DNA of 64,000 bases, taken from an uncultured Candidatus Saccharibacteria bacterium (GTDB lineage: Bacteria > Patescibacteriota > Minisyncoccia > 2-02-FULL-40-12 > GWA2-44-9). This document shows positions 31,354 through 52,687 of this stretch, piece by piece. Each line of letters begins with the position of its first letter. The stretch's first letter is position 1. The stretch is taken from positions 279,425-343,424 of the forward strand of contig CAZBFM010000001.1 in assembly GCA_964491455.1 (NCBI GenBank), read 5' to 3'. Below the pieces are notes generated by a model. That model saw nothing but the letters and a program-made list of their open reading frames with translations, did no database searches and was not told the origin of the DNA. Made by a program: the position numbers and the translations under genes.

Positions 31354-32766
31354 CTACTCCGTAGTAATTTTCAGGTGCAGCTCTCGCAATTGATGTGAGG
31401 AAATTGGAGAGGGTGAATGCATCATAAGATCGCGAGCATCGCCCGTCTTAGGAAACGCTAGCACCTCGCGAATGTTTGGCTCATTGTGTAAGAGTGCGAT
31501 GAGTCGATCCCAACCCCAGGCAATCCCTCCGTGCGGCGGAGCACCATGAGAAAATGCGGTCAGCATGTGACCAAAATTTTCATCTATAGTGGAATTCTCA
31601 AATCCCATAATACGAAATACCGCGCGAAGTCCGTCGGATGTATGGTTGCGGATGGAGCCACCACCTATCTCCCAACCGTTTAATACGATATCGTACTGGC
31701 TTGTGAGAATATTTCCAATATTGCTTGCCGAAAGCAAGTCAGACATGAACTCTGGCTTCGGCGCGGAAAATGGATTGTGTGTAAACGTCCATCCCTCATC
31801 CGTCTTCTCAAAAAATGGAAAATCAACGACCCAACAAAACGCGAGCACATTTGGATCATTCTTATCCTCTCGAACATCGGGTCGATCTGTCCCGTATGTT
31901 CCCATAGCTTCGGCGAAGCTCATGCGGGGAAACGGAATTTGCTGAATGCGTTTTTCAGGATAGAGCTTCGTTACGAAATCGATGAGAAGCGCTTCGTTAA
32001 GCGCCATAACATCCTCGCGCTCGACAAAACTCATCTCTAAATCGAGTTGCGTAAATTCTGGTTGGCGATCGCCACGCGTGTCCTCATCTCGGAAGCAACG
32101 AGCAAATTGAAAATATCGCTCCATTCCCGCCACCATGAGCAATTGCTTGTACTGCTGCGGCGATTGAGGAAGCGCATAAAACGATCCGGCATATAATCTG
32201 CTTGGAACCACATAATCACGTGCACCCTCGGGTGTACTTTTGGTGAGCATCGGCGTCTCTACTTCGAGAAACCCCTTCGCGTCAAGCCAATTGCGAATGA
32301 ACAATTGCCCCTTGTGTCGCGCCATCATGTTGCGCGCCATACGGGGACGACGCAAATCGAGATATCGCCACTCATGGCGCGTATCTTCGCCGATTTCATA
32401 TCCATCAGTATCAAGCGGCATTGGAGGTGTCTGCGATGCATTGAGAACCTCTAATTCTCGAGGTTCAAATTCAACAGAACCCGTAGGGATATCGGCATTG
32501 CGCATTTTCTCTGGTCGCTCTTTGATGAGCCCCTTCAGGCGTACAACCCATTCATTACGAAGCGTCTGAGCGAGTTCGTAGCACGAAGGTGTAAATGGCC
32601 CAAACACGACCTGAATGACGCCGGTACGATCGCGAAGGTCGACGAACACGAGCTTGCCATGGTCTCGTCGATTGACGACCCAGCCAAAAAGCTCAATTTC
32701 TTCACCAATACGATCCTTTGTTTCGAGGATGGATATCTGTTTCATAGAATACGTGCATCCTATCAC
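31354..32766 (-). CDS. aspS: Aspartyl-tRNA synthetase (short archaeal-like form, possibly non-discriminating)
   Basis: 470 aa. N-terminal OB fold, class IIb core and the AspRS-type QSPQ loop (…ALPQSPQQYKQ…). Confidence 0.8.
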   Translation of the reverse strand: MIGCTYSMKQISILETKDRIGEEIELFGWVVNRRDHGKLVFVDLRDRTGVIQVVFGPFTPSCYELAQTLRNEWVVRLKGLIKERPEKMRNADIPTGSVEFEPRELEVLNASQTPPMPLDTDGYEIGEDTRHEWRYLDLRRPRMARNMMARHKGQLFIRNWLDAKGFLEVETPMLTKSTPEGARDYVVPSRLYAGSFYALPQSPQQYKQLLMVAGMERYFQFARCFRDEDTRGDRQPEFTQLDLEMSFVEREDVMALNEALLIDFVTKLYPEKRIQQIPFPRMSFAEAMGTYGTDRPDVREDKNDPNVLAFCWVVDFPFFEKTDEGWTFTHNPFSAPKPEFMSDLLSASNIGNILTSQYDIVLNGWEIGGGSIRNHTSDGLRAVFRIMGFENSTIDENFGHMLTAFSHGAPPHGGIAWGWDRLIALLHNEPNIREVLAFPKTGDARDLMMHSPSPISSHQLRELHLKITTE

Positions 32767-32792
32767 GTCAACGTCAGAATGCCAAGGGCGTA

Positions 32793-32821
32793 TTGACGTT
32801 TTGGATGACTTGTTTTATTGT
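32793..32821 (+). promoter_or_regulatory. Possible sigma70-like promoter for the + strand coiled-coil gene, with an inverted repeat (CGTCAA…TTGACG) overlapping the -35
   Basis: TTGACG, a 17-nt spacer, then TATTGT, about 20 nt upstream of GTG 32843. Weak -10. Confidence 0.25.
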
Positions 32822-32842
32822 ATTCTTGTCCAAGGAGAACAC

Positions 32843-33124
32843 GTGGCAAAACAAAAGAAATCTCTGGAATGTCCCCGCAATAACGCAGAGATCACCCTCA
32901 TGCGCGAGCTTCGCGAAACGAAGAACCGACTCGACGCGGTGAAAGAAGATAGAGAGATCAAATTGCGCAAAATTGAAGGCCTTGAATCTGAGAATTCAAT
33001 TCTAAAGCAGCAAATCAAGGGCCATCTTGAAGCGCTCAGTGAAAAGGATGCTGAAGCACAAGGATTTGAGAGGGGCGTGACGAGAATCCTGGAAGTTATA
33101 CTGGATCGTCTCGTCCGGAACTAA
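32843..33124 (+). CDS. Small coiled-coil protein (about 93 aa) of unknown function
   Basis: GTG start 5 nt after AAGGAG (32832-32837). Heptad-rich sequence (…LRETKNRLDAVKEDREIKLRKIEGLESENSILKQQIKGHLEALSEKDAEAQ…). Ends at a clean terminator. The track ORF 32615..33124 is over-extended through the divergent promoter. Confidence 0.4.
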   Translation: MAKQKKSLECPRNNAEITLMRELRETKNRLDAVKEDREIKLRKIEGLESENSILKQQIKGHLEALSEKDAEAQGFERGVTRILEVILDRLVRN

Positions 33125-33145
33125 CGGCTCTCATTTTTCGGGCTC

Positions 33146-33172
33146 ATCGGGACCTCACGGTCCCGATTTTTT
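33146..33172 (+). terminator. Rho-independent terminator
   Basis: ATCGGGACC-tcac-GGTCCCGAT followed by tttttt. Confidence 0.65.
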
Positions 33173-33185
33173 CTATGACAATACT

Positions 33186-33563
33186 GTGCTATGGTGTCAT
33201 CCAGGAGAGCTAGTTGTGAACTTTGATAATTACTACTATTACTGTCCGCGTTGTAAACGCGTAGTGAATCCAACATGGTATGTGGGTCATCGAACCTACA
33301 GCATGAGCAGTCTCACAGCTCCTTACTTCATGTGCAGCGAGTGTCGCACCATCGGTGCCTACCCTCCACACGTAAAGAATACGATTGCGGAATGGCGACG
33401 CGCGTTGTACAGCAGAAAGCGAGTGCCGAGCTGTCGAAATATGTACACGATTGTCATGCGAGATCTCGATCTGATCATGTCCGGAATCTGCGCGCAATCG
33501 GGATATCGTAGAGTACGTTGCCGCATTCCACAGCGTCCACCGGAGCATGAGACGAGGTCATGA
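33186..33563 (+). CDS. Small Cys4 zinc-ribbon protein, paralog A
   Basis: CPRC…(26 aa)…CSEC with a basic C-terminus. A GTG at 33217 preceded by AGGAGA is a better start than the ATG at 33186. Confidence 0.4.
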   Translation: MLWCHPGELVVNFDNYYYYCPRCKRVVNPTWYVGHRTYSMSSLTAPYFMCSECRTIGAYPPHVKNTIAEWRRALYSRKRVPSCRNMYTIVMRDLDLIMSGICAQSGYRRVRCRIPQRPPEHETRS

Positions 33564-33880
33564 CGACGACGATGCAGTATGCTTGTCCGAAATGCAATAC
33601 CAGGCGATATCCGGAACGTGTAATTATTTCTCGCGGCCACTCCGCTCGTCGATGGGAACTCCCGTACCTCATGTGTGGACAATGCCGGCTCATAGGGATC
33701 GATATCGTACTCGCGCGTCGAACCCTACAAGGACTTGTTAAGGAAACGCAGGTCACGTCATCATCATCGAGCCTCACAGAGGAGATGCTATCGCGACTTG
33801 AAGATCATATCGCGTACTTCTGTCGAGATGCCGGCTATACGCGCGCTCGCTTCAAGCGCGTTCGCACAAAGACTCTCTAG
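33560..33880 (+). CDS. Small Cys4 zinc-ribbon protein, paralog B
   Basis: CPKC…(26 aa)…CGQC with a basic C-terminus (…GYTRARFKRVR…). It aligns to paralog A (YxCPxCxxxxxP…PYxMCxxCRxIG) and overlaps paralog A by 4 nt. Confidence 0.4.
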   Translation: MTTTMQYACPKCNTRRYPERVIISRGHSARRWELPYLMCGQCRLIGIDIVLARRTLQGLVKETQVTSSSSSLTEEMLSRLEDHIAYFCRDAGYTRARFKRVRTKTL

Positions 33881-33910
33881 GGAGTCTTTTCTTTTTTCGC
33901 CGTGAATTCA

Positions 33911-33940
33911 AAATTAAAAAGCTGCTACGAACGTAGCAGC
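33911..33940 (-). terminator. Rho-independent terminator for the 33947-34396 gene
   Basis: Hairpin GCTGCTACG-aa-CGTAGCAGC (33921-33940). On the minus strand it is followed by the U-tract complementary to aaaattaaaaa (33911-33920). Confidence 0.55.
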
Positions 33941-33946
33941 AGCTGT

Positions 33947-34396
33947 CTAGTTTCCGAACATTGCCCACGCCGGCTGGATAGCACAAATACTGTAGTGATG
34001 TCCCGCCACATTGCCCCACGCCTCCGTGAAAACTCTCCAGCCCTTTTCATTCGATCCATCTTGATCCGGTTCTCGACCATACTCCACCTGATCCAACCAG
34101 CCCGCGACAAATACCGTAGCGCCTTCGAGATCAAGCGGATATGGCAAGGCTATCGCGTCGCGCTCCGCTGACCATAACAGCAGTCGCGTCGGCACCCCAC
34201 CGCTATCTTGCTTTATGTGTTCGAAATGATGCGTCGTCACACCAGCATCGTTCTGAAAGTATTCCACCTCATATCGGAGCGGGAACATTTTGTAATGGCT
34301 TGCCTTCCCGCCGGGAGCATTCGGCCAGATCAGCCTCAGTGCACCCGCTAAACCTTCATGACCCTGACTTGTTACGTCAATCGTTCTATTATACAT
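33947..34396 (-). CDS. Hypothetical protein (149 aa), no recognisable domain
   Basis: Clean ORF with its own terminator immediately downstream of tRNA-Lys. His-rich segments (…TTHHFEHIKQD…, …GHHYSICAIQ…). Confidence 0.35.
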   Translation of the reverse strand: MYNRTIDVTSQGHEGLAGALRLIWPNAPGGKASHYKMFPLRYEVEYFQNDAGVTTHHFEHIKQDSGGVPTRLLLWSAERDAIALPYPLDLEGATVFVAGWLDQVEYGREPDQDGSNEKGWRVFTEAWGNVAGHHYSICAIQPAWAMFGN

Positions 34397-34456
34397 CTGA
34401 TCATGTCTCCTCGTTATTCTAAAACAAGAACGTATTGTGAATGGACCCAGAATGTC

Positions 34457-34529: not shown

Positions 34530-34576
34530 ATGAACCAGCATAAAATACCACGTTTTTAACGTGCCTTCAAGGCGCG

Positions 34577-36196
34577 CTACATATTGAGCGCACGACGAAT
34601 AAGGGCTTTCAATTCGTCATCTGAGGTGGACACCACACCGGTTGTCGTAGCTTGTGGCTTCTCTTTGATTTCAACGGCTCGTCCATTGAATCCCACAGCG
34701 CCCCCCTTCAGCGCATCGAGACTGGCTGTCTGCTGCGGCGCAGGTCGAGGACCCGAAGCTTGTAACGGCGGTCGCTGATGCGAACCTTGCCCCTGAGGAC
34801 GCTGTGGTTGTTGCATCGGTCGTGCGACGGACTGGGATGGGAATGGACTATCCCGGCGCGGCGTTGCTGGCCTATCACTCGCTGCTCGGGGCACGTATTG
34901 AGGCTGTTCAAGTGGCGCACGCCATTTTGCGATCGCCTCTTCCACTTCCGCTCGCGGCCGAGCGTACATAGTGCGCGAGTATTCGACCACTTCATCCCGA
35001 GTACTTTGCTCGAGCTTCTTTGGCGTGTCCATCGTCATAGCAGAAAACGCATGACTCGTGACTCCATCGATCATTAATTTGAGATACATCTGACGGAATC
35101 CAAGGTTCACAATGTCGGTTGCCATAAATTCAGGGGCGAATTCTTTCTCCATCAACTCAGCATCTTCTGCTCCAATGCGAAACGATATGATCGTTCCCAC
35201 ATTGCCGAAGACCGCGTCGGCAACCTCTTCCGCAAGCTGCTTAATATATTGATGAGCTACAATCAGAGACAAATTGAATTTACGCGCTTCGGAGAGGATG
35301 TTCGCAAATGAACCCGTTGCAAAGTTTTGGAACTCATCAACAATCAACGTGAAGTCCGCACGTTCATGCTTTGGTATATCGACGCGCGACATCGCCGCAA
35401 GCTGAATCTTGGTGATAATCATCGCACCAAGAAGTCGAGATGCGTCTTCACCAATACGTCCCTTTGAAATATCCACGAGGATTATTTTGCGCTGATCCAT
35501 GGCTTCGCGCATATTGAAGGTAGACCGCTCCTGCCCAACTAGATTGCGAATGAGAGAGTTGGAAACAAACTGACCAACCTTGTTTTGTATAGCAGCTGTT
35601 GCCTCTGACGCAAACTTGTCAGTATATTTCGCGAATTCTTGTGTCCAGAATGCTTTCACTTCCGGATCCGTCACTTGGTCAACTATCTTCTTTCGATACT
35701 CCTTATCTGCCAACATTCTATTGATGCCTAGGAGCGTAGATCCGGGAGCCTCGAGGAGAGCGAGGATCGTATTATTGAGGATGTATTCCATACGAGCCGA
35801 CCACGCATCGAGCCAAATCTTTTTGAACACCGCCATCATGCCATCAGCAACGAGATGACGCTGATCAAAGCTCACACTCTCCATGACATTAAATCCAACT
35901 GGAAACTGCATGTCGGCAGGATTAATAAAAATGACATCTTTGACACGCTCAGGAGGGATATAATCCAATAAATCATATACAGGATCTCCGTGCGGATCCA
36001 TAAAACAGACACCTCTGCCATCGCGAATATCTTGAATGGCAAGCATCTTTAGGAGCTCCGATTTGCCCATACCAGATTTTCCGATCACATACATATGCCT
36101 GCGACGATCATCGAGCTTGATGCCGAAATGCTGAATCGCATTTCGAAATTCAGTTTGACCGAAAAGCACTACATTGTTTTCTGGTTCGAATGTCAT
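34577..36196 (-). CDS. Soluble type-IV-coupling-protein-like ATPase (VirD4/TraG/TraD family, FtsK-HerA superfamily)
   Basis: 539 aa, no TM. HMYVIGKSGMGKSE (Walker A), DPHGD, LIVDEFQNF (Walker B) and VAHQYIKQL in T4CP order. A Pro/Gln-rich tail of about 120 aa at the C-terminus. Confidence 0.55.
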   Translation of the reverse strand: MTFEPENNVVLFGQTEFRNAIQHFGIKLDDRRRHMYVIGKSGMGKSELLKMLAIQDIRDGRGVCFMDPHGDPVYDLLDYIPPERVKDVIFINPADMQFPVGFNVMESVSFDQRHLVADGMMAVFKKIWLDAWSARMEYILNNTILALLEAPGSTLLGINRMLADKEYRKKIVDQVTDPEVKAFWTQEFAKYTDKFASEATAAIQNKVGQFVSNSLIRNLVGQERSTFNMREAMDQRKIILVDISKGRIGEDASRLLGAMIITKIQLAAMSRVDIPKHERADFTLIVDEFQNFATGSFANILSEARKFNLSLIVAHQYIKQLAEEVADAVFGNVGTIISFRIGAEDAELMEKEFAPEFMATDIVNLGFRQMYLKLMIDGVTSHAFSAMTMDTPKKLEQSTRDEVVEYSRTMYARPRAEVEEAIAKWRAPLEQPQYVPRAASDRPATPRRDSPFPSQSVARPMQQPQRPQGQGSHQRPPLQASGPRPAPQQTASLDALKGGAVGFNGRAVEIKEKPQATTTGVVSTSDDELKALIRRALNM

Positions 36197-36199
36197 GTG

Positions 36200-37528
36200 T
36201 TATCGAGTTGGTAGCATTGCAGGCGGCTGACCCTTCTTTGCCTGCACACGAGGCAAGAGCGGCGCCTTCACATTCAAGGCGGGCAGATGCCATAACGTAG
36301 CAAGCTCTTCGACATTTAAAATAGGCTGATAATCCTTCGGGTTACCAGTTGGAGCTGAAAACGATCTGCTCATGTACGCGCCATACATGGCCTTCTTCTT
36401 CTTGAGTGTTTTTTCGCCAGCGGAGAATCCCTTCCCACTCGGGAACAGCCACGCGAGCGACCCCTTATCACCCGTCCCATTTCCTGGCTTGAAAGAATTA
36501 AGATTATTATAAAATAATTGCTTCATCATACCAGCGACACTCGACGACCGCGCACCATTAAATACATCTTTCCGCGCAATGTAGACAGTTCGTATTGTCG
36601 TTTTAAATGCCAATTTTGATAGCTTCTGCTGAATTTTCTCGAGCACATCCTTATCAGCTGGCGTAAGCGCTGATAAATTGAATGGCTTCTCTTCTTTCTT
36701 CTTCTCCTCGACAACCGGAAAAACACCAATGATGGTAAGAATAAAACCAATCCCACGAAACGGAGCAGTGATCACTTTCTCGAAGAGCTTCGGTTCGTCT
36801 GGCTTCACCTCTCGCCCCGCAAGCTTGTCGACAACCTTTTGGCCATCTTTTACCCAGTCACCTCCGGTGGGTCGGATCACATATTGCAACCACAAATATT
36901 CGCCGGGACGCAATGCGCTCATAATCTCCAGTAGCGGGGCTAATGGATCAAGGCGTGAATACTCATCCTTTCCACCCGCATCCTCAAATTCAGTCCAACT
37001 TTTTATAGGATACGCCGATGGCTGGGTGCACACAAAATCACTCCCTGAAATATCAAATTGCGTGTTATCAAATTCTCTTGGCAGGAGCGCAGTATAATCC
37101 TCAACAGGTCGAACCTCCGCAGAGGGATATTGAGAAAAGACAGCCGCCTCAACACCATTTCGCTGCCCCTCCGTGCAACGAATGTAAAAATGCGTCTCAC
37201 CGCCATGAGATACAATTTCCAGGGAAAACCAATCGGGTATCTTCCCGCCGAACGCCTGATCCTTCCACTTGATGCCACCTCCGTAACTGGCATGCAACCA
37301 CGCAAAAAAACTCTCTGCCGCTTTAGGGCTACTATAGAGAATCTCTGGGGGAGGGATGACTTCCAGAACCGTCCACTTCATCGCCGAAAGATATTTTTCT
37401 TTTTGATATCCCAGCCATGATGTATATGCGACATCAACGAGAATCAAAGGAAACCAGGCCCACCAATAATCGAGTGCCAGAGTAAATCCCCTCCACAGGG
37501 CTGTAGTAACAGCTGAAGTTTCAATCAT
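36200..37528 (-). CDS. Hypothetical membrane protein (N-terminal TM pair plus a central TM), co-transcribed with the T4CP-like ATPase
   Basis: 442 aa. A 3-nt gap to the downstream ATPase gene. Hydrophobic segments at aa about 10-40 and about 250-270. Lys-rich linker. Confidence 0.4.
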   Translation of the reverse strand: MIETSAVTTALWRGFTLALDYWWAWFPLILVDVAYTSWLGYQKEKYLSAMKWTVLEVIPPPEILYSSPKAAESFFAWLHASYGGGIKWKDQAFGGKIPDWFSLEIVSHGGETHFYIRCTEGQRNGVEAAVFSQYPSAEVRPVEDYTALLPREFDNTQFDISGSDFVCTQPSAYPIKSWTEFEDAGGKDEYSRLDPLAPLLEIMSALRPGEYLWLQYVIRPTGGDWVKDGQKVVDKLAGREVKPDEPKLFEKVITAPFRGIGFILTIIGVFPVVEEKKKEEKPFNLSALTPADKDVLEKIQQKLSKLAFKTTIRTVYIARKDVFNGARSSSVAGMMKQLFYNNLNSFKPGNGTGDKGSLAWLFPSGKGFSAGEKTLKKKKAMYGAYMSRSFSAPTGNPKDYQPILNVEELATLWHLPALNVKAPLLPRVQAKKGQPPAMLPTR

Positions 37529-37550: not shown

Positions 37551-37578
37551 TACAAACAAACAACCTCGTCAGAGGTTG
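37551..37578 (-). terminator. Strong hairpin (12-bp stem), a possible terminator or attenuator between the sigma-r4 gene and the downstream operon
   Basis: ACAAACAACCTC-gtca-GAGGTTGTTTGT. Followed on the minus strand by UUGUAUGUGG, which is only a moderate U tract. Confidence 0.4.
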
Positions 37579-37602
37579 TTTGTAGTGCGAACAATCAGAA
37601 GA

Positions 37603-47418: not shown

Positions 47419-47880
47419 TCAATTCCCATGGCACTTCTTAAACCTCTTACCACTCCCGCAAAGGCAGGGTGGATTTTGCGCTAAAAAATTTTTGTTAGCA
47501 GGAAACAGGTTTTCCGGAAGCTGGGAAAGGTCAAACCATTTCATTTCCGAAAATTTTTCCGGTTCCATTAAAGAAGGTTGTCCGCTAAAGCTGGTTGGCT
47601 TGGTATGAACAGTGATGTAATGCTTATTTTCAGCTTCGTAAACGTCGCTGGTGACTCCCAAGATTTCTATATCTTTTACCTCTATCCCCGCTTCTTCCTT
47701 GGCTTCTCTTTGGGCAGATTGAAGGAAGCTTTCTCCGTATTCTATATGGCCGCCCGGCGGGCACCAGGTGCCGTTGGCGTGTTTGGATTTGCGTAGAAAA
47801 AGGAGCAGCTTGCCGTTTTCTACAATGTAAACGCCAATTGCTCCTTTGGGCCTAAGTTTGTCTTGGTCTTCATTTCCCAT
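47419..47880 (-). CDS. NUDIX hydrolase with C-terminal SEC-C zinc-binding motif
   Basis: Nudix box [27 protein letters not shown]-terminus [15 protein letters not shown]. The start is probably MGNEDQ (ATG 8 nt before the secA stop). The track ORF extends to 47925. Confidence 0.7.
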
Positions 47881-50542
47881 GGCACTTCTTGTATTTCTTT
47901 CCAGAGCCACAAGGGCACGGATCATTACGCCCGATAGTATCTGATTGTAGGTTCGGATTGGAAGCGTGATCGTCTTTCGATGTCAGAAGTTGTGTTGCAG
48001 GATCTTCCGATAGGTTAGGGCGACTCTCGACTCCATTTCGAAGCGATGCGGGCCCCGGAGCTACCTGGACCTTAAAGATAATGCCTGCAACGCGAGAAGC
48101 GAGAGTAATCGCAAGCGAACCATACATTCGTTGCGCTTCGATCTTGTACTCGACTAAAGGATCGCGTTGCCCATACGCACGCAATCGTACAGACTCGCGA
48201 AGATGATCCATTGCTTCGATATGGTCCACCCATAGATCGTCAATCGTGCGTACCACAACCGCTCTCTCGATCTGTCGCATCTGCACAGCCCCCATACGAT
48301 CTTCGTGCAGCGCATATAACCGACGCATCTCCACGACAAGATAGTCAGTGAGCTCATCTGCATCGCGATACTCTTTTGCTAGAAGATCCGGAAAGAGCGA
48401 ATCAGGAAATGGCGCGATCGAACGGAGGGTATCGACGATCTCTCGAATACTCAATTCGCCTGTCTCTTCGTTTCTATGCGCTCGCACAATGGCCTGCAGC
48501 TCGCCCTCCAAATATCCCAGGACTGTCTCGTGGATGTCTGGCGAAGAAAGTATCGATCGACGAATGCCATACATGGTTTCACGATGTTTATTCATGACAT
48601 CGTCATACTCAAGTACGTATTTCCTAGAATCGAAGTTATGACCCTCAATTCGACTCTGCGCTTGTGCTATTGATCGGGATACGATGCTGTTCTCGATAAC
48701 ATCCTCATCGGTGACGCCCAGGGTATTCATAATATTCTTCAAGCGATCTCCACTAAATATTCGCACAAGCTCATCTTCAGTGGAAACATAAAACTGGCTT
48801 GCCCCAGGATCTCCCTGGCGACCCGCGCGACCACGGAGCTGATCGTCAATGCGCCGCGCTTCATGACGCTCCGTGCCAAACACGCACAATCCGCCAAGTT
48901 CTCTCACCTCGCGCGCCTCATCCTCATCGATCGGATTACCACCAAGAATGATATCAACGCCGCGCCCAGCCATGTTCGTTGCAACCGTCACAGCGCCCCT
49001 ACGTCCAGCCTGCGCTATGATTTCAGCTTCTTGTTCGTGATTCTTTGCGTTTAGCACCTGATGCTTTACGCCTATCGACGCCAGCAACACCGAGAGCATT
49101 TCATTTTTTTCAATAGAAACGGTTCCCACAAGCACTGGTTGCCCTAGCTCGTGACGACGCTTCACTTCATGTGCGAGTGCCTTGAATTTTCCCAATTCAC
49201 TCTTATAGATGCGATCGGGCAAATCCTTTCGCAAGAGCGGTTTATGCGTGGGGACGACGACTACATTGAGGCTATATACTTTGTGAAACTCCTCTGCAGA
49301 TGTGCGCGCAGTACCCGTCATTCCGGAAAGCTTTCCATAGAGCCTGAAATAATTTTGGAACGTTACCGTTGCCAGCGTTTTGCTTTCGCGTTGGATGAGA
49401 ACGCCTTCTTTTGCCTCCACTGCCTGGTGAAGACCGTCAGACCATCGGCGTCCCGGCATGAGGCGCCCCGTGAATTCATCCACGATAATAACCTCATTAT
49501 CCTTTACGACATACTCTTTGTCTCGACGGAAAAGCACATGCGCACGTAACGCCTGCTCAAGATGATGCACATATCGAGCCCCACCCTCCTCATACATATC
49601 AGCGATACCAAGACGCTTTTGTATCTTTTCAATACCATCGTCGGTAATACTTACTGCTTTTAGCTTCTCATCGATGGTATAGTCCTCACCTTCTTTGAGT
49701 ATTGGCACTGCACGCGCGAATGACGAATATAAAGCGCCCGACTCTTCATCAGGAGCAGAAATGATAAGAGGGGTGCGCGCCTCATCGATAAGGATTGAGT
49801 CGACCTCATCAACGATTGCAAATGCATGCGGAGTCACTTGTCGCTGAGACATATCTTCCAATCTTGGCGCCATATTATCGCGAAGATAGTCAAACCCATA
49901 TTCATTATTGGTTCCATACGTAATATCCGCTTGATATGCTTCGCGCCGACTCACCGGCCGAAGAAACTCATGAACGACTCGAAACGATCCAGTCTCATCG
50001 CGCTCATGATCACTCTCCGCGAGATCGGCAGGCTTCACATGGGAGGAGTCATAGATGTACGAAGCCTCATGATTGAGCACGCTCACTGTTAGGCCTAAGG
50101 CATCATAAATCTGACCCATCCACGTCGCATCACGTCGACTGAGGTAATCATTCACAGTAACAACATGCACCCCATTCCCCGATAACGCATTGAGATACGC
50201 TGGAAGCGTAGCAACCAATGTCTTACCTTCACCGGTCGACATTTGCGCGATTGCACCAGAGTGCAGCACCATACCTCCAATGAGTTGCTCATCAAAATGT
50301 CGCTTACCAGATTTGCGCAGTGATGCCTCACGAACTGCAGCAAACGCCTCAGGCAGCAGCTCATCTAGTGTCGAACCAGTCCGCAATCGCTCCCTAAAAT
50401 CAATCGTTAACGAGCGGAGCTCGTCATCAGATAACGATCGCATATGAGCCTCGAGAGCATTTATTTTTACAACTGAACTCGCGTACGATCGGATGATACG
50501 CGCATTTGCGTCAGGTAAAAACTTCGATAGAAATTCAAACAT
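47870..50542 (-). CDS. secA: Preprotein translocase ATPase SecA
   Basis: 890 aa. DEAD-like motor, PPXD, HSD/HWD, and a C-terminal SEC-C zinc finger [15 protein letters not shown]. Confidence 0.95.
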
Positions 50543-50932: not shown

Positions 50933-52687
50933 CTACCGAGTTATTGAAGCGCCAAGTGTATAGACGGAAACTTCAGCGTCATTGACGGTAAAAATAGCAT
51001 TCCAATCTCGTCCCGAAGCCTCCCACTGTCGCGCAGAAATATCGAACCAATGCTTCGTTCCATCCGCCCATATCGAGTACACTTTCTTTGAGCCTTGCGC
51101 CCGAATGTACACGCTAGCGGCGTAATGAAAGAACACATCGTCAGGAACATCCCGAACTTCCTTCGTCTGCAAGCCGTACAATGCAAGAATTGCAGGCGAT
51201 AGCAATCTTCGATACGAACCCCAAACCACGTAGATATCACTTTGACCTTTTCGTCGAATAAGATCTCCATCGGTCGGTTGTACATAGGCAAATCTATCCG
51301 CAGTCGATGCACTTTTTTCGGGTGATATCGGAAGAAGAGCCTCATCAATTGCACCGACAGCAGCAATAACAGTTATCGTATCTTCCATTGGCTTCCTCCC
51401 GCCTATGGGATACAGGGAGCCGTGCGTTATCGCAACCGTAATGTCCTGAATATCGAACCCGTCATTACGCGCTGGGATGCTCATCCGGGCAACGCCCCTG
51501 ACGAACACTGGAGTCGTTATACGTATAATGCCATTGCTATATCGAACAATTATAGCACCATGCATCTCGCTATTCTCGGGTCCAGAGATTCTAAGACCGA
51601 GATCCTCGGTTGTCACTACTCCAGACTCAATCGGAATGGCGATCCAACGCGGCTGCCATTCCTGCAAGCGACTCGCATTCGATATCCGCTTGCGAGACAA
51701 CGAGAGACTATCAAGCGCCTCAGCTCGAACGCGAAGAGTGCTTAATTCTGGCTGTGCAAAACCATACGCAGAACCGATACTACCATCATTAAGGAGGCAT
51801 GCGATCATCCAATCGACATACACATCAGAAAATCCAAAGCCCCTACGCGTCATGAGCCAATCATGCAGAGAGGCGGTACCCTGCAAGGGCGATGCAACGG
51901 TCTCGGAAAGAATTCCCTCACCGAAGCGACCGGCGAGATAGTGCACAAAAACGGATGCCATCGCATAATCAGTTGCTGTGTTCGGCCACAACGTTAATGA
52001 ATCAGAGGGGCTTCGAAGAAACGAAGGAACACGACGCTGAAGAGAACTAAACTCATACGGACTACTATACCCGGTCGCCGTGACATTATACTCACTCCGC
52101 GCTTCGTTTAACCACACATCCTCGCCCTCCCGTTCAGCAAGCTCTCTTTGATTGAATGAGATGAGATGTTGAATCTCATGCGCAATGAGTGTTGTTGCGT
52201 TTCCCGCCAAAACGCTTTCGGCATTTATAAAAATCATCTCTCTCGCATTTCCACGAGGCGACTCCTTCCTGGAATAGTTATGGATATTTTCAAAATAACC
52301 ACCGCTTCCTTGTATCAGGCGTTGCAAAACGATAACCACATGACTATCGCCATCGACGCCAGGGTTTGCCTCAGACCCCCACAATTTCACAGAAATTGGG
52401 TAGATCTTTTCATCGATTTGCTGCGAGAGCTGCAGAAGCGCAGGAATGAACAAATTCTTTTGCTCTGGCGTTAGGTAGCTCCAATATCGATCGTCGACAT
52501 AGAGATACCCGTGCGCACCAATGGCTCGCAATGTCGCAGTAATAGAAGATGCGCCCGCATAATCGTAGAACGAATTGACGTTATATTTCTGCACTTGCTC
52601 TATGTCATCGGCACGGGCAATAGAACCGAGACAACAAAATACCAAAGATGCGACTACTCCAACAGCTAGCAGTCTCAGCCATTTCAT
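50933..52687 (-). CDS. Large secreted protein with a zincin-like HExxH…E motif; putative metallopeptidase
   Basis: 584 aa. Signal peptide MKWLRLLAVGVVASLVFCCLGSIARA. …TLIAHEIQHLISFNQ…NEARSEY…. Confidence 0.35.
   Translation of the reverse strand: MKWLRLLAVGVVASLVFCCLGSIARADDIEQVQKYNVNSFYDYAGASSITATLRAIGAHGYLYVDDRYWSYLTPEQKNLFIPALLQLSQQIDEKIYPISVKLWGSEANPGVDGDSHVVIVLQRLIQGSGGYFENIHNYSRKESPRGNAREMIFINAESVLAGNATTLIAHEIQHLISFNQRELAEREGEDVWLNEARSEYNVTATGYSSPYEFSSLQRRVPSFLRSPSDSLTLWPNTATDYAMASVFVHYLAGRFGEGILSETVASPLQGTASLHDWLMTRRGFGFSDVYVDWMIACLLNDGSIGSAYGFAQPELSTLRVRAEALDSLSLSRKRISNASRLQEWQPRWIAIPIESGVVTTEDLGLRISGPENSEMHGAIIVRYSNGIIRITTPVFVRGVARMSIPARNDGFDIQDITVAITHGSLYPIGGRKPMEDTITVIAAVGAIDEALLPISPEKSASTADRFAYVQPTDGDLIRRKGQSDIYVVWGSYRRLLSPAILALYGLQTKEVRDVPDDVFFHYAASVYIRAQGSKKVYSIWADGTKHWFDISARQWEASGRDWNAIFTVNDAEVSVYTLGASITR

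Follow-up and report, generated by a model that had tools for sequence, protein, structure and literature searches.

Two adjacent genes of an uncultured Candidatus Saccharibacteria bacterium, encoding a DUF8128 protein and a soluble ATPase, probably specify one motor ATPase in two pieces. This motor belongs to the VirD4/VirB4 clade of the FtsK-HerA superfamily and would most likely serve the chromosomal T4SS that most Patescibacteria carry elsewhere, either in coupling or as a second energising ATPase. The assignment to a split ATPase of this clade is based on the coupling-protein (T4CP) profiles matched by the ATPase, on the same-strand pairing of the two genes in Patescibacteria, and on homologues in which both proteins are fused; the motor would presumably be hexameric. 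Its link to a T4SS is drawn from analogy and from the distant fused homologues, since no T4SS, relaxase or pilin gene was found in the window, the whole 64-kb stretch of DNA that was analysed. The features of the locus are collected in Table 1.

Table 1. Coordinates of the two-gene locus and of its features within the window.
Feature	Position	Strand	Remarks
Upstream neighbour gene, 353 aa	37603..38664	-	Pfam: Sigma70_r4 (aa 18-68) and HARE-HTH (aa 228-288); conserved synteny with the pair
Terminator-like 12-bp hairpin with T-rich tail	37556..37583	-	between the sigma-r4/HARE-HTH gene and the pair, upstream of the pair
DUF8128 gene	36200..37528	-	442 aa; PF26449; AF2 model pLDDT 82.6, pTM 0.78
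N-terminal hydrophobic helix	37406..37468	-	aa 21-41, YWWAWFPLILVDVAYTSWLGY, about 21 residues; likely single membrane anchor
Cytoplasmic alpha/beta domain, VirB4-like fold	36293..37381	-	aa 50-412
Variable linker	36659..36787	-	aa 248-290; non-conserved hydrophobic stretch, then K/E-rich run
Highly conserved C-terminal tail	36203..36322	-	aa 403-442, ILNVEELATLWHLP...PRVQAKKGQPPAMLPTR; proposed ATPase docking element
ATPase gene	34577..36196	-	539 aa; soluble, VirD4/VirB4 clade
Walker A, GKSGMGKSE	36056..36082	-	aa 39-47
DPHGD motif	35984..35998	-	aa 67-71; equivalent of TrwB DPNGD; invariant
All-helical insertion, Walker A to Walker B	35495..35860	-	aa 113-234; from model secondary structure and TrwB_AAD_bind alignment
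Walker B, LIVDEFQNF	35321..35347	-	aa 284-292
HQYIKQL motif	35234..35254	-	aa 315-321; equivalent of TrwB LQSTSQL
Pro/Gln-rich linker	34622..34909	-	aa 430-525; mostly low-confidence, without regular structure
Conserved C-terminal helix	34580..34621	-	aa 526-539, of which 526-536 are modelled as a helix; candidate tail for binding a partner or substrate
Terminator-like hairpin	34549..34563	-	just past the ATPase stop codon

The two ORFs were found where the preliminary description had placed them, separated by the claimed 3 nt, the sequence from stop to start codon being TAA-CAC-ATG. Judged from the sequence, co-transcription is plausible because of this short gap, the upstream hairpin with its T-rich tail, and the terminator-like site downstream, and the two proteins are probably translationally coupled. 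At loci with the pair the intergenic gap has a median of 14.5 nt, and both ORFs share a frame at 30 of 64 loci, where one third would be expected (binomial p 0.017, loci not weighted by phylogeny). This excess was too weak to uphold stop-codon read-through between the genes and may at most be a relic of gene fission. What looked like a UAA-suppressor tRNA in L016, relevant to the in-frame TAA, proved to be a mis-registered tRNA-Lys.

The ATPase carries the coupling-protein motif series that had been reported for it, and the core residues of all four motifs are invariant in 40 homologues. Profile searches confirmed the T4CP assignment, as three Pfam families scored above their cut-offs: TrwB_AAD_bind (38.6 bits, cut-off 20.5) over aa 27-347, TraG-D_C (24.4 bits, cut-off 22) and DUF87 (27 bits, cut-off 23.2). 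TrwB and DotL were the sole matches among PDB sequences at E <0.01, and 346 residues of the ATPase model superpose on TrwB. Neither HerA nor FtsK-SpoIIIE was the best profile or structural match; the best profiles are those of T4CP families. The all-helical insertion is equivalent to the T4CP all-alpha domain or to the VirB4 helical bundle, and does not discriminate between T4CPs and the VirB4 C-terminal domain. An N-terminal transmembrane (TM) anchor is indeed absent, the best 19-residue Kyte-Doolittle mean being 1.21, and the tail is Pro/Gln-rich as described (16% Pro, 14% Gln), with a pLDDT <50 in the model at residues 448-458, 461-493 and 511-523. After this tail follows a conserved C-terminal helix that was absent from the preliminary description; L529 and F503 are nearly invariant in the homologue alignment.

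The partner was assigned to DUF8128 through an annotation precomputed for a protein of 100% identity and for every homologue listed, while local Pfam and NCBIfam models and PADLOC gave no match to it. It had been described as polytopic, with an N-terminal TM pair and a central TM, and this topology was not borne out. Hydropathy of 45 homologues and their alignment revealed a single conserved hydrophobic helix of about 21 residues, at aa 21-41, with another helix before it; the model helices span residues 4-20 and 22-49. The supposed central TM, at aa 252-270, has a Kyte-Doolittle value of 1.9 here and is hydrophobic in close relatives only, most homologues at greater distance having values <1.2; it lies in a variable linker of gap-rich alignment columns and pLDDT about 42-66, within a single confidently folded domain (model pTM 0.78). 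DUF8128 is likely singly anchored and mostly cytoplasmic. A fold search with DUF8128 matched only VirB4/TrwK, and the matched region is taken to be the VirB4 N-terminal domain because DUF8128 matches no other P-loop protein. Neither hhalign against TrwK, pSK41 TrsD and TrsE nor a search of PDB sequences gave anything significant, and the DUF8128-VirB4 link is therefore one of fold only; this missing sequence-level similarity to TrwK, TrsD and TrsE counts against the two-piece motor. As to the earlier suggestion of a membrane tether, a protein with one anchor, lying mostly in the cytoplasm and folded like VirB4, would be more than a tether.

The suggestion of a split coupling protein gained support, as the pair is co-conserved and elsewhere its two members are found as the front and back halves of one chain. 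On the B. subtilis plasmid NRS6107_2, a 913-aa "DUF87 domain-containing protein" contains both halves in one chain, aa 56-312 aligning with the DUF8128 profile (hhalign 96%, E 4e-9) and aa 323-760 with the ATPase profile (99.85%, E 9e-31). This protein has no membrane helix, and its gene lies directly upstream of that for a "replication-relaxation family protein", after which come TcpE-like and VirB4-like genes, whereas such a relaxase-like and T4SS gene association is absent around the pair in the window. Its identity with the T4CP of pLS20 was considered and rejected, since gene 48 of pLS20 has two TM helices and is of a different type (PMC8557374). On Priestia and Pontibacillus replicons (Bacillaceae megareplicons), DUF8128 continues into Walker A within a single ORF, and a T4SS cluster lies 7-13 kb from the fused homologue of Pontibacillus. 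Fused homologues are further found in phages, namely lytic SPO1-like phages, phage G and a Microcystis phage; in phrog_5156 of the SPO1-like phages, DUF8128 occupies profile positions 62-311 and the ATPase 406-814. In fused homologues the C-terminal tail motif of DUF8128 sits immediately before the ATPase domain.

Within Patescibacteria, the ATPase gene lies downstream of DUF8128 on the same strand at 69 of the 82 DUF8128 loci with room for a downstream gene, DUF8128 identity among the 69 dropping to 29%, and look-ups from the ATPase side found DUF8128 directly upstream in three of three; the 442-aa neighbour is thus co-conserved with the ATPase. At the remaining 13 loci DUF8128 occurs with no ATPase within 8 kb, which counts against the pair as one machine. 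The conserved order is SecD-SecF, the sigma-r4/HARE-HTH gene, and then the pair. Across classes identity is 56-64% for the ATPase, 50-60% for SecD and only 30-35% for DUF8128, and so well conserved an ATPase is more in keeping with a housekeeping function than with a gene typical of conjugation, which counts against the T4SS role. Most of the window ORFs scanned with Pfam are housekeeping genes (SecA, SecDF, Lon, MraY, FtsW, Mur ligases, MreBC, aminoacyl-tRNA synthetases and others), and several have no Pfam match. The lack of VirB4, VirB6, relaxase and pilin genes asserted for the window was confirmed by a Pfam scan of 44 ORFs, nearly all those of at least 150 aa outside longer ORFs, which small pilins could escape. 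This absence says little on the suggested minimal system for DNA uptake or export, because in Patescibacteria the VirB4-type T4SS, present in about 80% of genomes, is usually encoded far from T4CP homologues (PMC12102498).

It is conceivable, if rather unlikely, that this ATPase of two parts has no dealings with a T4SS and is a housekeeping membrane-associated translocase of DNA or protein, for example in DNA uptake, chromosome segregation, division or surface-component export. Such a role would suit the conserved synteny with SecDF, AspRS and tRNA-Lys and the very strong conservation of the ATPase, as well as a lone soluble ATPase homologue of 39% identity, carried by a Sulfitobacter plasmid that has no annotated T4SS gene in its vicinity. 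A survey counted 5,713 T4CP homologues in 2,918 Patescibacteria genomes, only 148 of them near virB4, and its authors raised exaptation (PMC12102498); a position mostly far from virB4 also agrees with a coupling ATPase whose T4SS is encoded elsewhere. The same survey reports that in S. epibionticum the T4SS genes are essential and a t4cp homologue, which may not be an orthologue of the window ATPase, is non-essential (PMC12102498); this too counts against a T4SS role, as do the fused homologues of lytic SPO1-like phages, which have no T4SS. On the other hand, the closest characterised sequence relatives are all conjugative coupling proteins, the sole structural relative of DUF8128 is a T4SS subunit, the fused plasmid homologue adjoins relaxase-like and T4SS genes, and the genes syntenic with the pair include no channel partner of the ComEC kind. 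By analogy, coupling or energising of a T4SS is the most likely role.

That the pair is a split VirB4 paralogue, an ATPase for T4SS or pilus assembly and not for substrate coupling, is improbable. The idea has a parallel in pSK41, where trsD, a stand-alone gene whose product is reported as remotely VirB4-N-terminal-like (PMC12102498), lies directly upstream of trsE, the VirB4 gene with a DUF87-type ATPase. The window ATPase, however, scored 17.2 bits with the VirB4 profile TIGR00929 against a cut-off of 643, CagE_TrbE_VirB of Pfam matched neither protein, and by sequence profile the ATPase aligns over the full length with T4CPs but only at the Walker B end with TrsE. Moreover, the fused homologues on the plasmid and megareplicons coexist with a separate canonical VirB4, and a bona fide VirB4 is already present in most Patescibacteria (PMC12102498).

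An ATPase of anti-phage defence, of the MADS mad8 or DndH/Dpt type, is very improbable. The mad8 profile of PADLOC does match aa 22-371 (70.8 bits, E 3e-20), and the upstream sigma-r4 protein weakly matches MzaA, but the latter match spans sigma region 4 only, DUF8128 has no PADLOC match, and no other defence gene is adjacent. Synteny with housekeeping genes across classes, for a family of 3,110 clusters at 50% identity, contrasts with patchy defence islands, and the mad8 and DndH similarities were rejected as an identification on context, the neighbours being SecDF, the sigma-r4/HARE-HTH gene, tRNA-Lys and AspRS with no mad1-mad8 operon. Least credible of all is a remnant coupling protein of a conjugative element integrated at the tRNA-Lys(UUU) 50 nt downstream of the ATPase gene, beyond which lies an unannotatable 1.8-kb segment: searches gave no sign of an integrase, relaxase or repeats, GC content is flat, and the reading was rejected on conserved synteny, as SecDF and the sigma-r4/HARE-HTH gene stand upstream even where DUF8128 is only 30% identical and the tRNA-Lys itself is syntenic in related lineages.

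For a split coupling ATPase, a mechanism is proposed in which DUF8128 is the detached N-terminal module, comprising the anchoring helix and the alpha/beta domain of about 360 aa, now a separate polypeptide that would tie the soluble ATPase to the cytoplasmic side of the membrane. The C-terminal tail of DUF8128 (EELATLWHLP...PRV.AKKGQPP) would replace the covalent junction of the fused proteins, while the VirB4-like N-terminal domain could let the pair dock at the VirB4 site, with subunits of the VirB3, VirB6 or VirB8 type. The ATPase ring would then spend ATP and feed a DNA or protein substrate toward a membrane channel. C-terminal tails of coupling proteins such as TraD and DotL recruit partners or substrates, and the Pro/Gln linker and conserved terminal helix may do likewise.

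A wider reading, offered as speculation and judged unlikely, is that DUF8128 and its ATPase form an unrecognised third lineage beside VirB4 and VirD4, with a VirB4-type N-terminal domain and a VirD4-type motor, which is fused in conjugative plasmids, megareplicons and SPO1-like phages and was domesticated in Patescibacteria as a split, near-universal housekeeping translocase that does not need the canonical T4SS and might, for example, carry DNA or protein between epibiont and host. If true, this would bear on the divergence of VirB4 and coupling proteins, and the pair possibly bridges the two architectures. The orphan T4CP homologues of Patescibacteria were published in 2025 (PMC12102498); new here is the DUF8128-ATPase pairing, a link that was not found in the literature searched. 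Patescibacteria depend on host cells and thousands of these homologues are unexplained (PMC10633639, PMC12102498). The T4SS of these bacteria was the first for which essentiality in growth was demonstrated, and its cluster has no recognisable coupling protein (PMC10633639, PMC12102498). A conserved, VirB4-like anchored partner provides a testable model of how orphan ATPases reach the membrane and possibly a T4SS. A fold and a context are now assigned to DUF8128, a family of over 3,000 clusters at the 50% identity level, and the fused homologues of the B. subtilis plasmid and SPO1-like phages are tractable for genetic tests of function.

Compared with known systems, the window ATPase has the nucleotide-binding domain profile of the VirD4, TrwB and TraG coupling proteins. 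Canonical T4CPs are not known to carry the alpha/beta N-terminal module of about 360 aa, which is separate in the window pair and fused in other lineages. They carry the N-terminal TM domain in the same chain, whereas here the likely anchor is on DUF8128; and they are associated with a relaxase, T4SS genes or both, whereas for the window ATPase neither was found in the 64-kb window, and it stands in a chromosomal housekeeping context and is very highly conserved. T4CPs that have no TM domain and work with a membrane partner are a recognised subclass (PMC7434980), as with TraJ and TraI of pIP501, a soluble coupling-type ATPase beside a membrane protein thought to recruit it, a pattern that the window ATPase, with its adjacent, co-conserved and probably anchored partner, may follow. 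TraI is described as a small membrane protein (PMC7434980), whereas DUF8128 has 442 aa, is mostly cytoplasmic and VirB4-like, and is joined to the ATPase in other lineages. VirB4, such as TrwK of R388 and the Thermoanaerobacter pseudethanolicus protein, is a single polypeptide with sequence profiles of its own that the window pair does not match, profile comparison favouring T4CPs, and its N-terminal and ATPase parts are here separate ORFs. In pGO1 and pSK41, TrsD resembles the window arrangement in being a separate, reportedly VirB4-N-like gene product encoded immediately before a DUF87-type ATPase, but it has 227 aa, pairs with a VirB4 (TrsE) and has no hhalign similarity to DUF8128. In phrog_5156 and the 913-aa plasmid protein, both uncharacterised, true homologues of the two window proteins follow one another in the window order within one polypeptide; these are fused and lie on phages or plasmids, whereas the window pair is split and chromosomal.

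The gene pair is well supported as a split VirD4/VirB4-clade ATPase, whose detached N-terminal module, DUF8128, has a VirB4-like fold and a membrane anchor. Both ORFs were recovered where the preliminary description had placed them (Table), with TAA-CAC-ATG as their junction. A hairpin of 12 bp, with a T-rich tail, lies between the pair and its upstream gene, and a terminator-like site lies 3' of the ATPase stop codon. The layout would fit a two-gene operon, with which both flanking sites are compatible, short of proof. The window is a segment of a Patescibacteria chromosome; housekeeping genes (SecA, SecDF, Lon, MraY, FtsW, Mur ligases, MreBC, PBP2, tRNA synthetases, glycosyltransferases) make up most of its 44 scanned ORFs, and several ORFs are matchless. 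None of the 44 matched a T4SS family, in agreement with the claim that no other T4SS parts are present.

Features of the window and sequence motifs of the ATPase
Feature	Position	Strand	Remark
DUF8128 gene	36200-37528	-	442 aa ORF
ATPase gene	34577-36196	-	539 aa ORF
Walker A, GKSGMGKSE	ATPase aa 39-47		
DPHGD motif	ATPase aa 67-71		
Walker B, LIVDEFQNF	ATPase aa 284-292		
HQYIKQL motif	ATPase aa 315-321		
Sigma-70 region 4 (N-terminal) + HARE-HTH protein, 353 aa	37603-38664	-	syntenic with the pair in most Patescibacteria loci
Coiled-coil ORF, 169 aa	in 32615-34453	+	start overlaps AspRS gene
Small ORF, paired CxxC motifs	33186-33563	+	
Small ORF, paired CxxC motifs	33560-33880	+	
149-aa ORF	33947-34396	-	
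NUDIX protein, 168 aa, C-terminal SEC-C zinc-binding motif	47419-47925	-	directly downstream of secA
584-aa ORF	50933-52687	-	no match in Pfam or PHROG

The four motifs of the T4CP series were all located in the ATPase, and their core residues are invariant among 40 aligned homologues. In Pfam, TrwB_AAD_bind matched aa 27-347 at 38.6 bits (cut-off 20.5), TraG-D_C reached 24.4 bits (cut-off 22) and DUF87 27 bits (cut-off 23.2). The top NCBIfam matches were TraD and the VirD4-like CD1115 family, VirB4_CagE giving 17 bits at most, and a PDB sequence search returned E < 0.01 for TrwB and DotL alone. The AlphaFold model (pLDDT 77.9, pTM 0.73) contains an all-helical insert, aa 113-234, between Walker A and Walker B. 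Together, these matches and the insert therefore place the ATPase in the VirD4/VirB4 clade, and the profiles do not point to a non-T4CP FtsK/HerA clade, the assignment that would have contradicted the preliminary description. Judged by sequence, VirD4 is favoured over VirB4, between which the fold is unable to discriminate. The lack of a TM anchor was confirmed, as no hydrophobic segment was detected, and so was the Pro/Gln-rich tail: residues 430-525 contain 16% Pro and 14% Gln and are modeled mostly at low confidence without regular structure, followed by a conserved terminal helix.

Precomputed Pfam annotation assigns PF26449 (DUF8128) to every partner homologue, while the partner gave no sequence match in the local Pfam and NCBIfam libraries or the PDB, and no mention of DUF8128 was found in the literature searched. 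In an alignment of 45 homologues, conservation covers a hydrophobic N-terminal helix, a large core and the C-terminal tail, EELATLWHLPGLNVKAPL.PRVEAKKGQPPA.LPTR, which is highly conserved. The partner had been described as polytopic, a view that did not hold: the claimed central TM is hydrophobic in close relatives only and falls in a gap-rich linker. DUF8128 is predicted to be a mostly cytoplasmic protein with a single anchor.

The idea of a split coupling protein was strengthened by homologues in which DUF8128 and then the ATPase are matched within one polypeptide. A 913-aa protein of B. subtilis plasmid NRS6107_2 spans both, aa 56-312 matching the DUF8128 profile (96%, E 4e-9, tail motif included) and aa 323-760 the ATPase profile (99.85%, E 9e-31). 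Immediately 3' of its gene lie a "replication-relaxation family protein" gene and then TcpE-like and VirB4-like (AAA_10) genes, and it occupies the usual place of the coupling-protein gene. Replicons of Priestia (1.08 Mb) and Pontibacillus (898 kb) each have a single ORF that joins a TM helix and DUF8128 to the ATPase N-terminus as far as Walker A, and the Pontibacillus gene lies 7-13 kb from a T4SS cluster. Furthermore, positions 62-311 of the phrog_5156 profile match DUF8128 and positions 406-814 the ATPase; members of this family occur in SPO1-like Bacillus phages, such as the 906-aa protein of phage SP8. These fused forms on a plasmid, megareplicons and phages indicate that each of the two window genes represents one half of a single protein family.

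Several observations accompany these homologues. In Priestia pFDU301A (L085, 7774-11433) and Pontibacillus (L086, 8659-12651), intervening sequences 0.2-0.9 kb long break up the fused gene. They sit at conserved motifs, among them the positions following GxxGxGK and VDE; conserved ORFs are retained in all coding pieces, which suggests introns or inteins, not decay. Sigma-like HTH genes lie two to three genes away. Both very large circular Bacillaceae "plasmids" (L085, NZ_CP045273.1, 1.08 Mb; L087, NZ_CP062975.1, 898 kb) carry RNR-like, tubulin-like, ClpX, SSB, flagellar and T4SS genes, and may be megaplasmids, chromids or another kind. In SP8 (L090, 2747-5467), about 400 aa precede the ATPase domain. 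Large ATPase homologues also occur in SPO1-like Herelleviridae phages, phage G (gp156) and a Microcystis phage; a conjugation-type ATPase encoded by lytic phages is puzzling. In the window, both ORFs share one reading frame, TAA-CAC being the sole separator (36197-36202). The same holds for 30 of 64 related loci against one third expected (p ~0.017, phylogeny-uncorrected), and may reflect a past gene fission.

The DUF8128 profile (E <= 1e-3) matches 3,110 clusters at 50% identity. Across 80 Patescibacteria genome loci, including Paceibacteria, Yanofsky-, Colwell-, Moran-, Kerfeld-, Uhr-, Falkow- and Nomurabacteria and one Microgenomates MAG, DUF8128 shares 29-97% identity. The partner is co-conserved: of 82 loci with room, 69 carry the ATPase downstream in the same orientation (median gap 14.5 nt), and all three look-ups started from the ATPase side found DUF8128 upstream. 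SecD, SecF, the sigma-r4/HARE-HTH gene, DUF8128 and ATPase form a widely kept order, and where DUF8128 identity is 30-35%, that of the ATPase is still 56-64% and of SecD 50-60%. Because of this synteny and co-conservation, the pair is a vertically inherited core module rather than a mobile element. No ATPase was found within 8 kb of DUF8128 in 13 loci (L035, L038, L040, L045, L049, L056, L057, L064, L073, L074, L076, L078, L083).

In five of seven ATPase-less loci inspected (L035, L038, L049, L073, L083; mostly Nomurabacteria-like), DUF8128 is followed by a membrane-anchored ORF of 290-340 aa that looks YceG/MltG-like, a putative assignment. The pair also occurs on TPA_asm MAG contigs labelled "uncultured Gammaproteobacteria", "Bdellovibrionales" or "Saccharibacteria" (L027, L028, L034, L044, L047, L053, L061, L063, L065-L067, L076 and others), in most cases preceded by SecDF and/or the sigma-r4/HARE-HTH gene, the arrangement of the Patescibacteria loci; these labels look unreliable. 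The 353-aa sigma-r4/HARE-HTH protein might regulate the pair specifically or act as its DNA-binding partner. Between AspRS and tRNA-Lys, a stretch of ~1.8 kb (32615-34453) holds four ORFs with no curated-level Pfam match and, for those scanned, no NCBIfam or PHROGs match; an equal-sized gap separates the ATPase and AspRS genes in a 97%-related locus (L004). The secA gene upstream of the NUDIX gene encodes its own SEC-C motif. A "tRNA-Stop (tta)" called by ARAGORN in related locus L016 (13607-13680) turned out on alignment to be a regular tRNA-Lys(UUU) whose anticodon had been mis-registered.

Based on the fused forms and on known T4CPs and VirB4, a mechanism is proposed in which DUF8128 would tether the ATPase via its conserved tail, the ATPase would form an ATP-driven ring, presumably hexameric, and its C-terminal tail would mediate recruitment. 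The cellular role is uncertain; the favoured reading gives the pair a coupling or energising function in the chromosomal T4SS encoded elsewhere in ~80% of Patescibacteria. The T4SS cluster of S. epibionticum has no recognisable coupling protein (PMC10633639), and of 5,713 T4CP homologues in 2,918 genomes only 148 lie near virB4, for which exaptation was raised (PMC12102498). The main rival, a housekeeping translocase independent of any T4SS, draws support from the core synteny of the pair, its high conservation and its phage homologues. A defence system and an integrated element were also considered and judged unlikely.

In the literature searched, no description was found of a T4CP-type ATPase with a partner or N-terminal half of VirB4 N-terminal-domain fold, nor of a split form conserved phylum-wide. 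T4CPs that lack a TMD and team with a membrane protein are a recognised subclass, represented by TraJ/TraI of pIP501 (PMC7434980), to which the soluble ATPase with its anchored DUF8128 compares. Similarly, TrsD is a stand-alone protein with a reported likeness to the N-terminal portion of VirB4 (PMC12102498), and on pSK41 trsD adjoins an ATPase gene, as DUF8128 does here.
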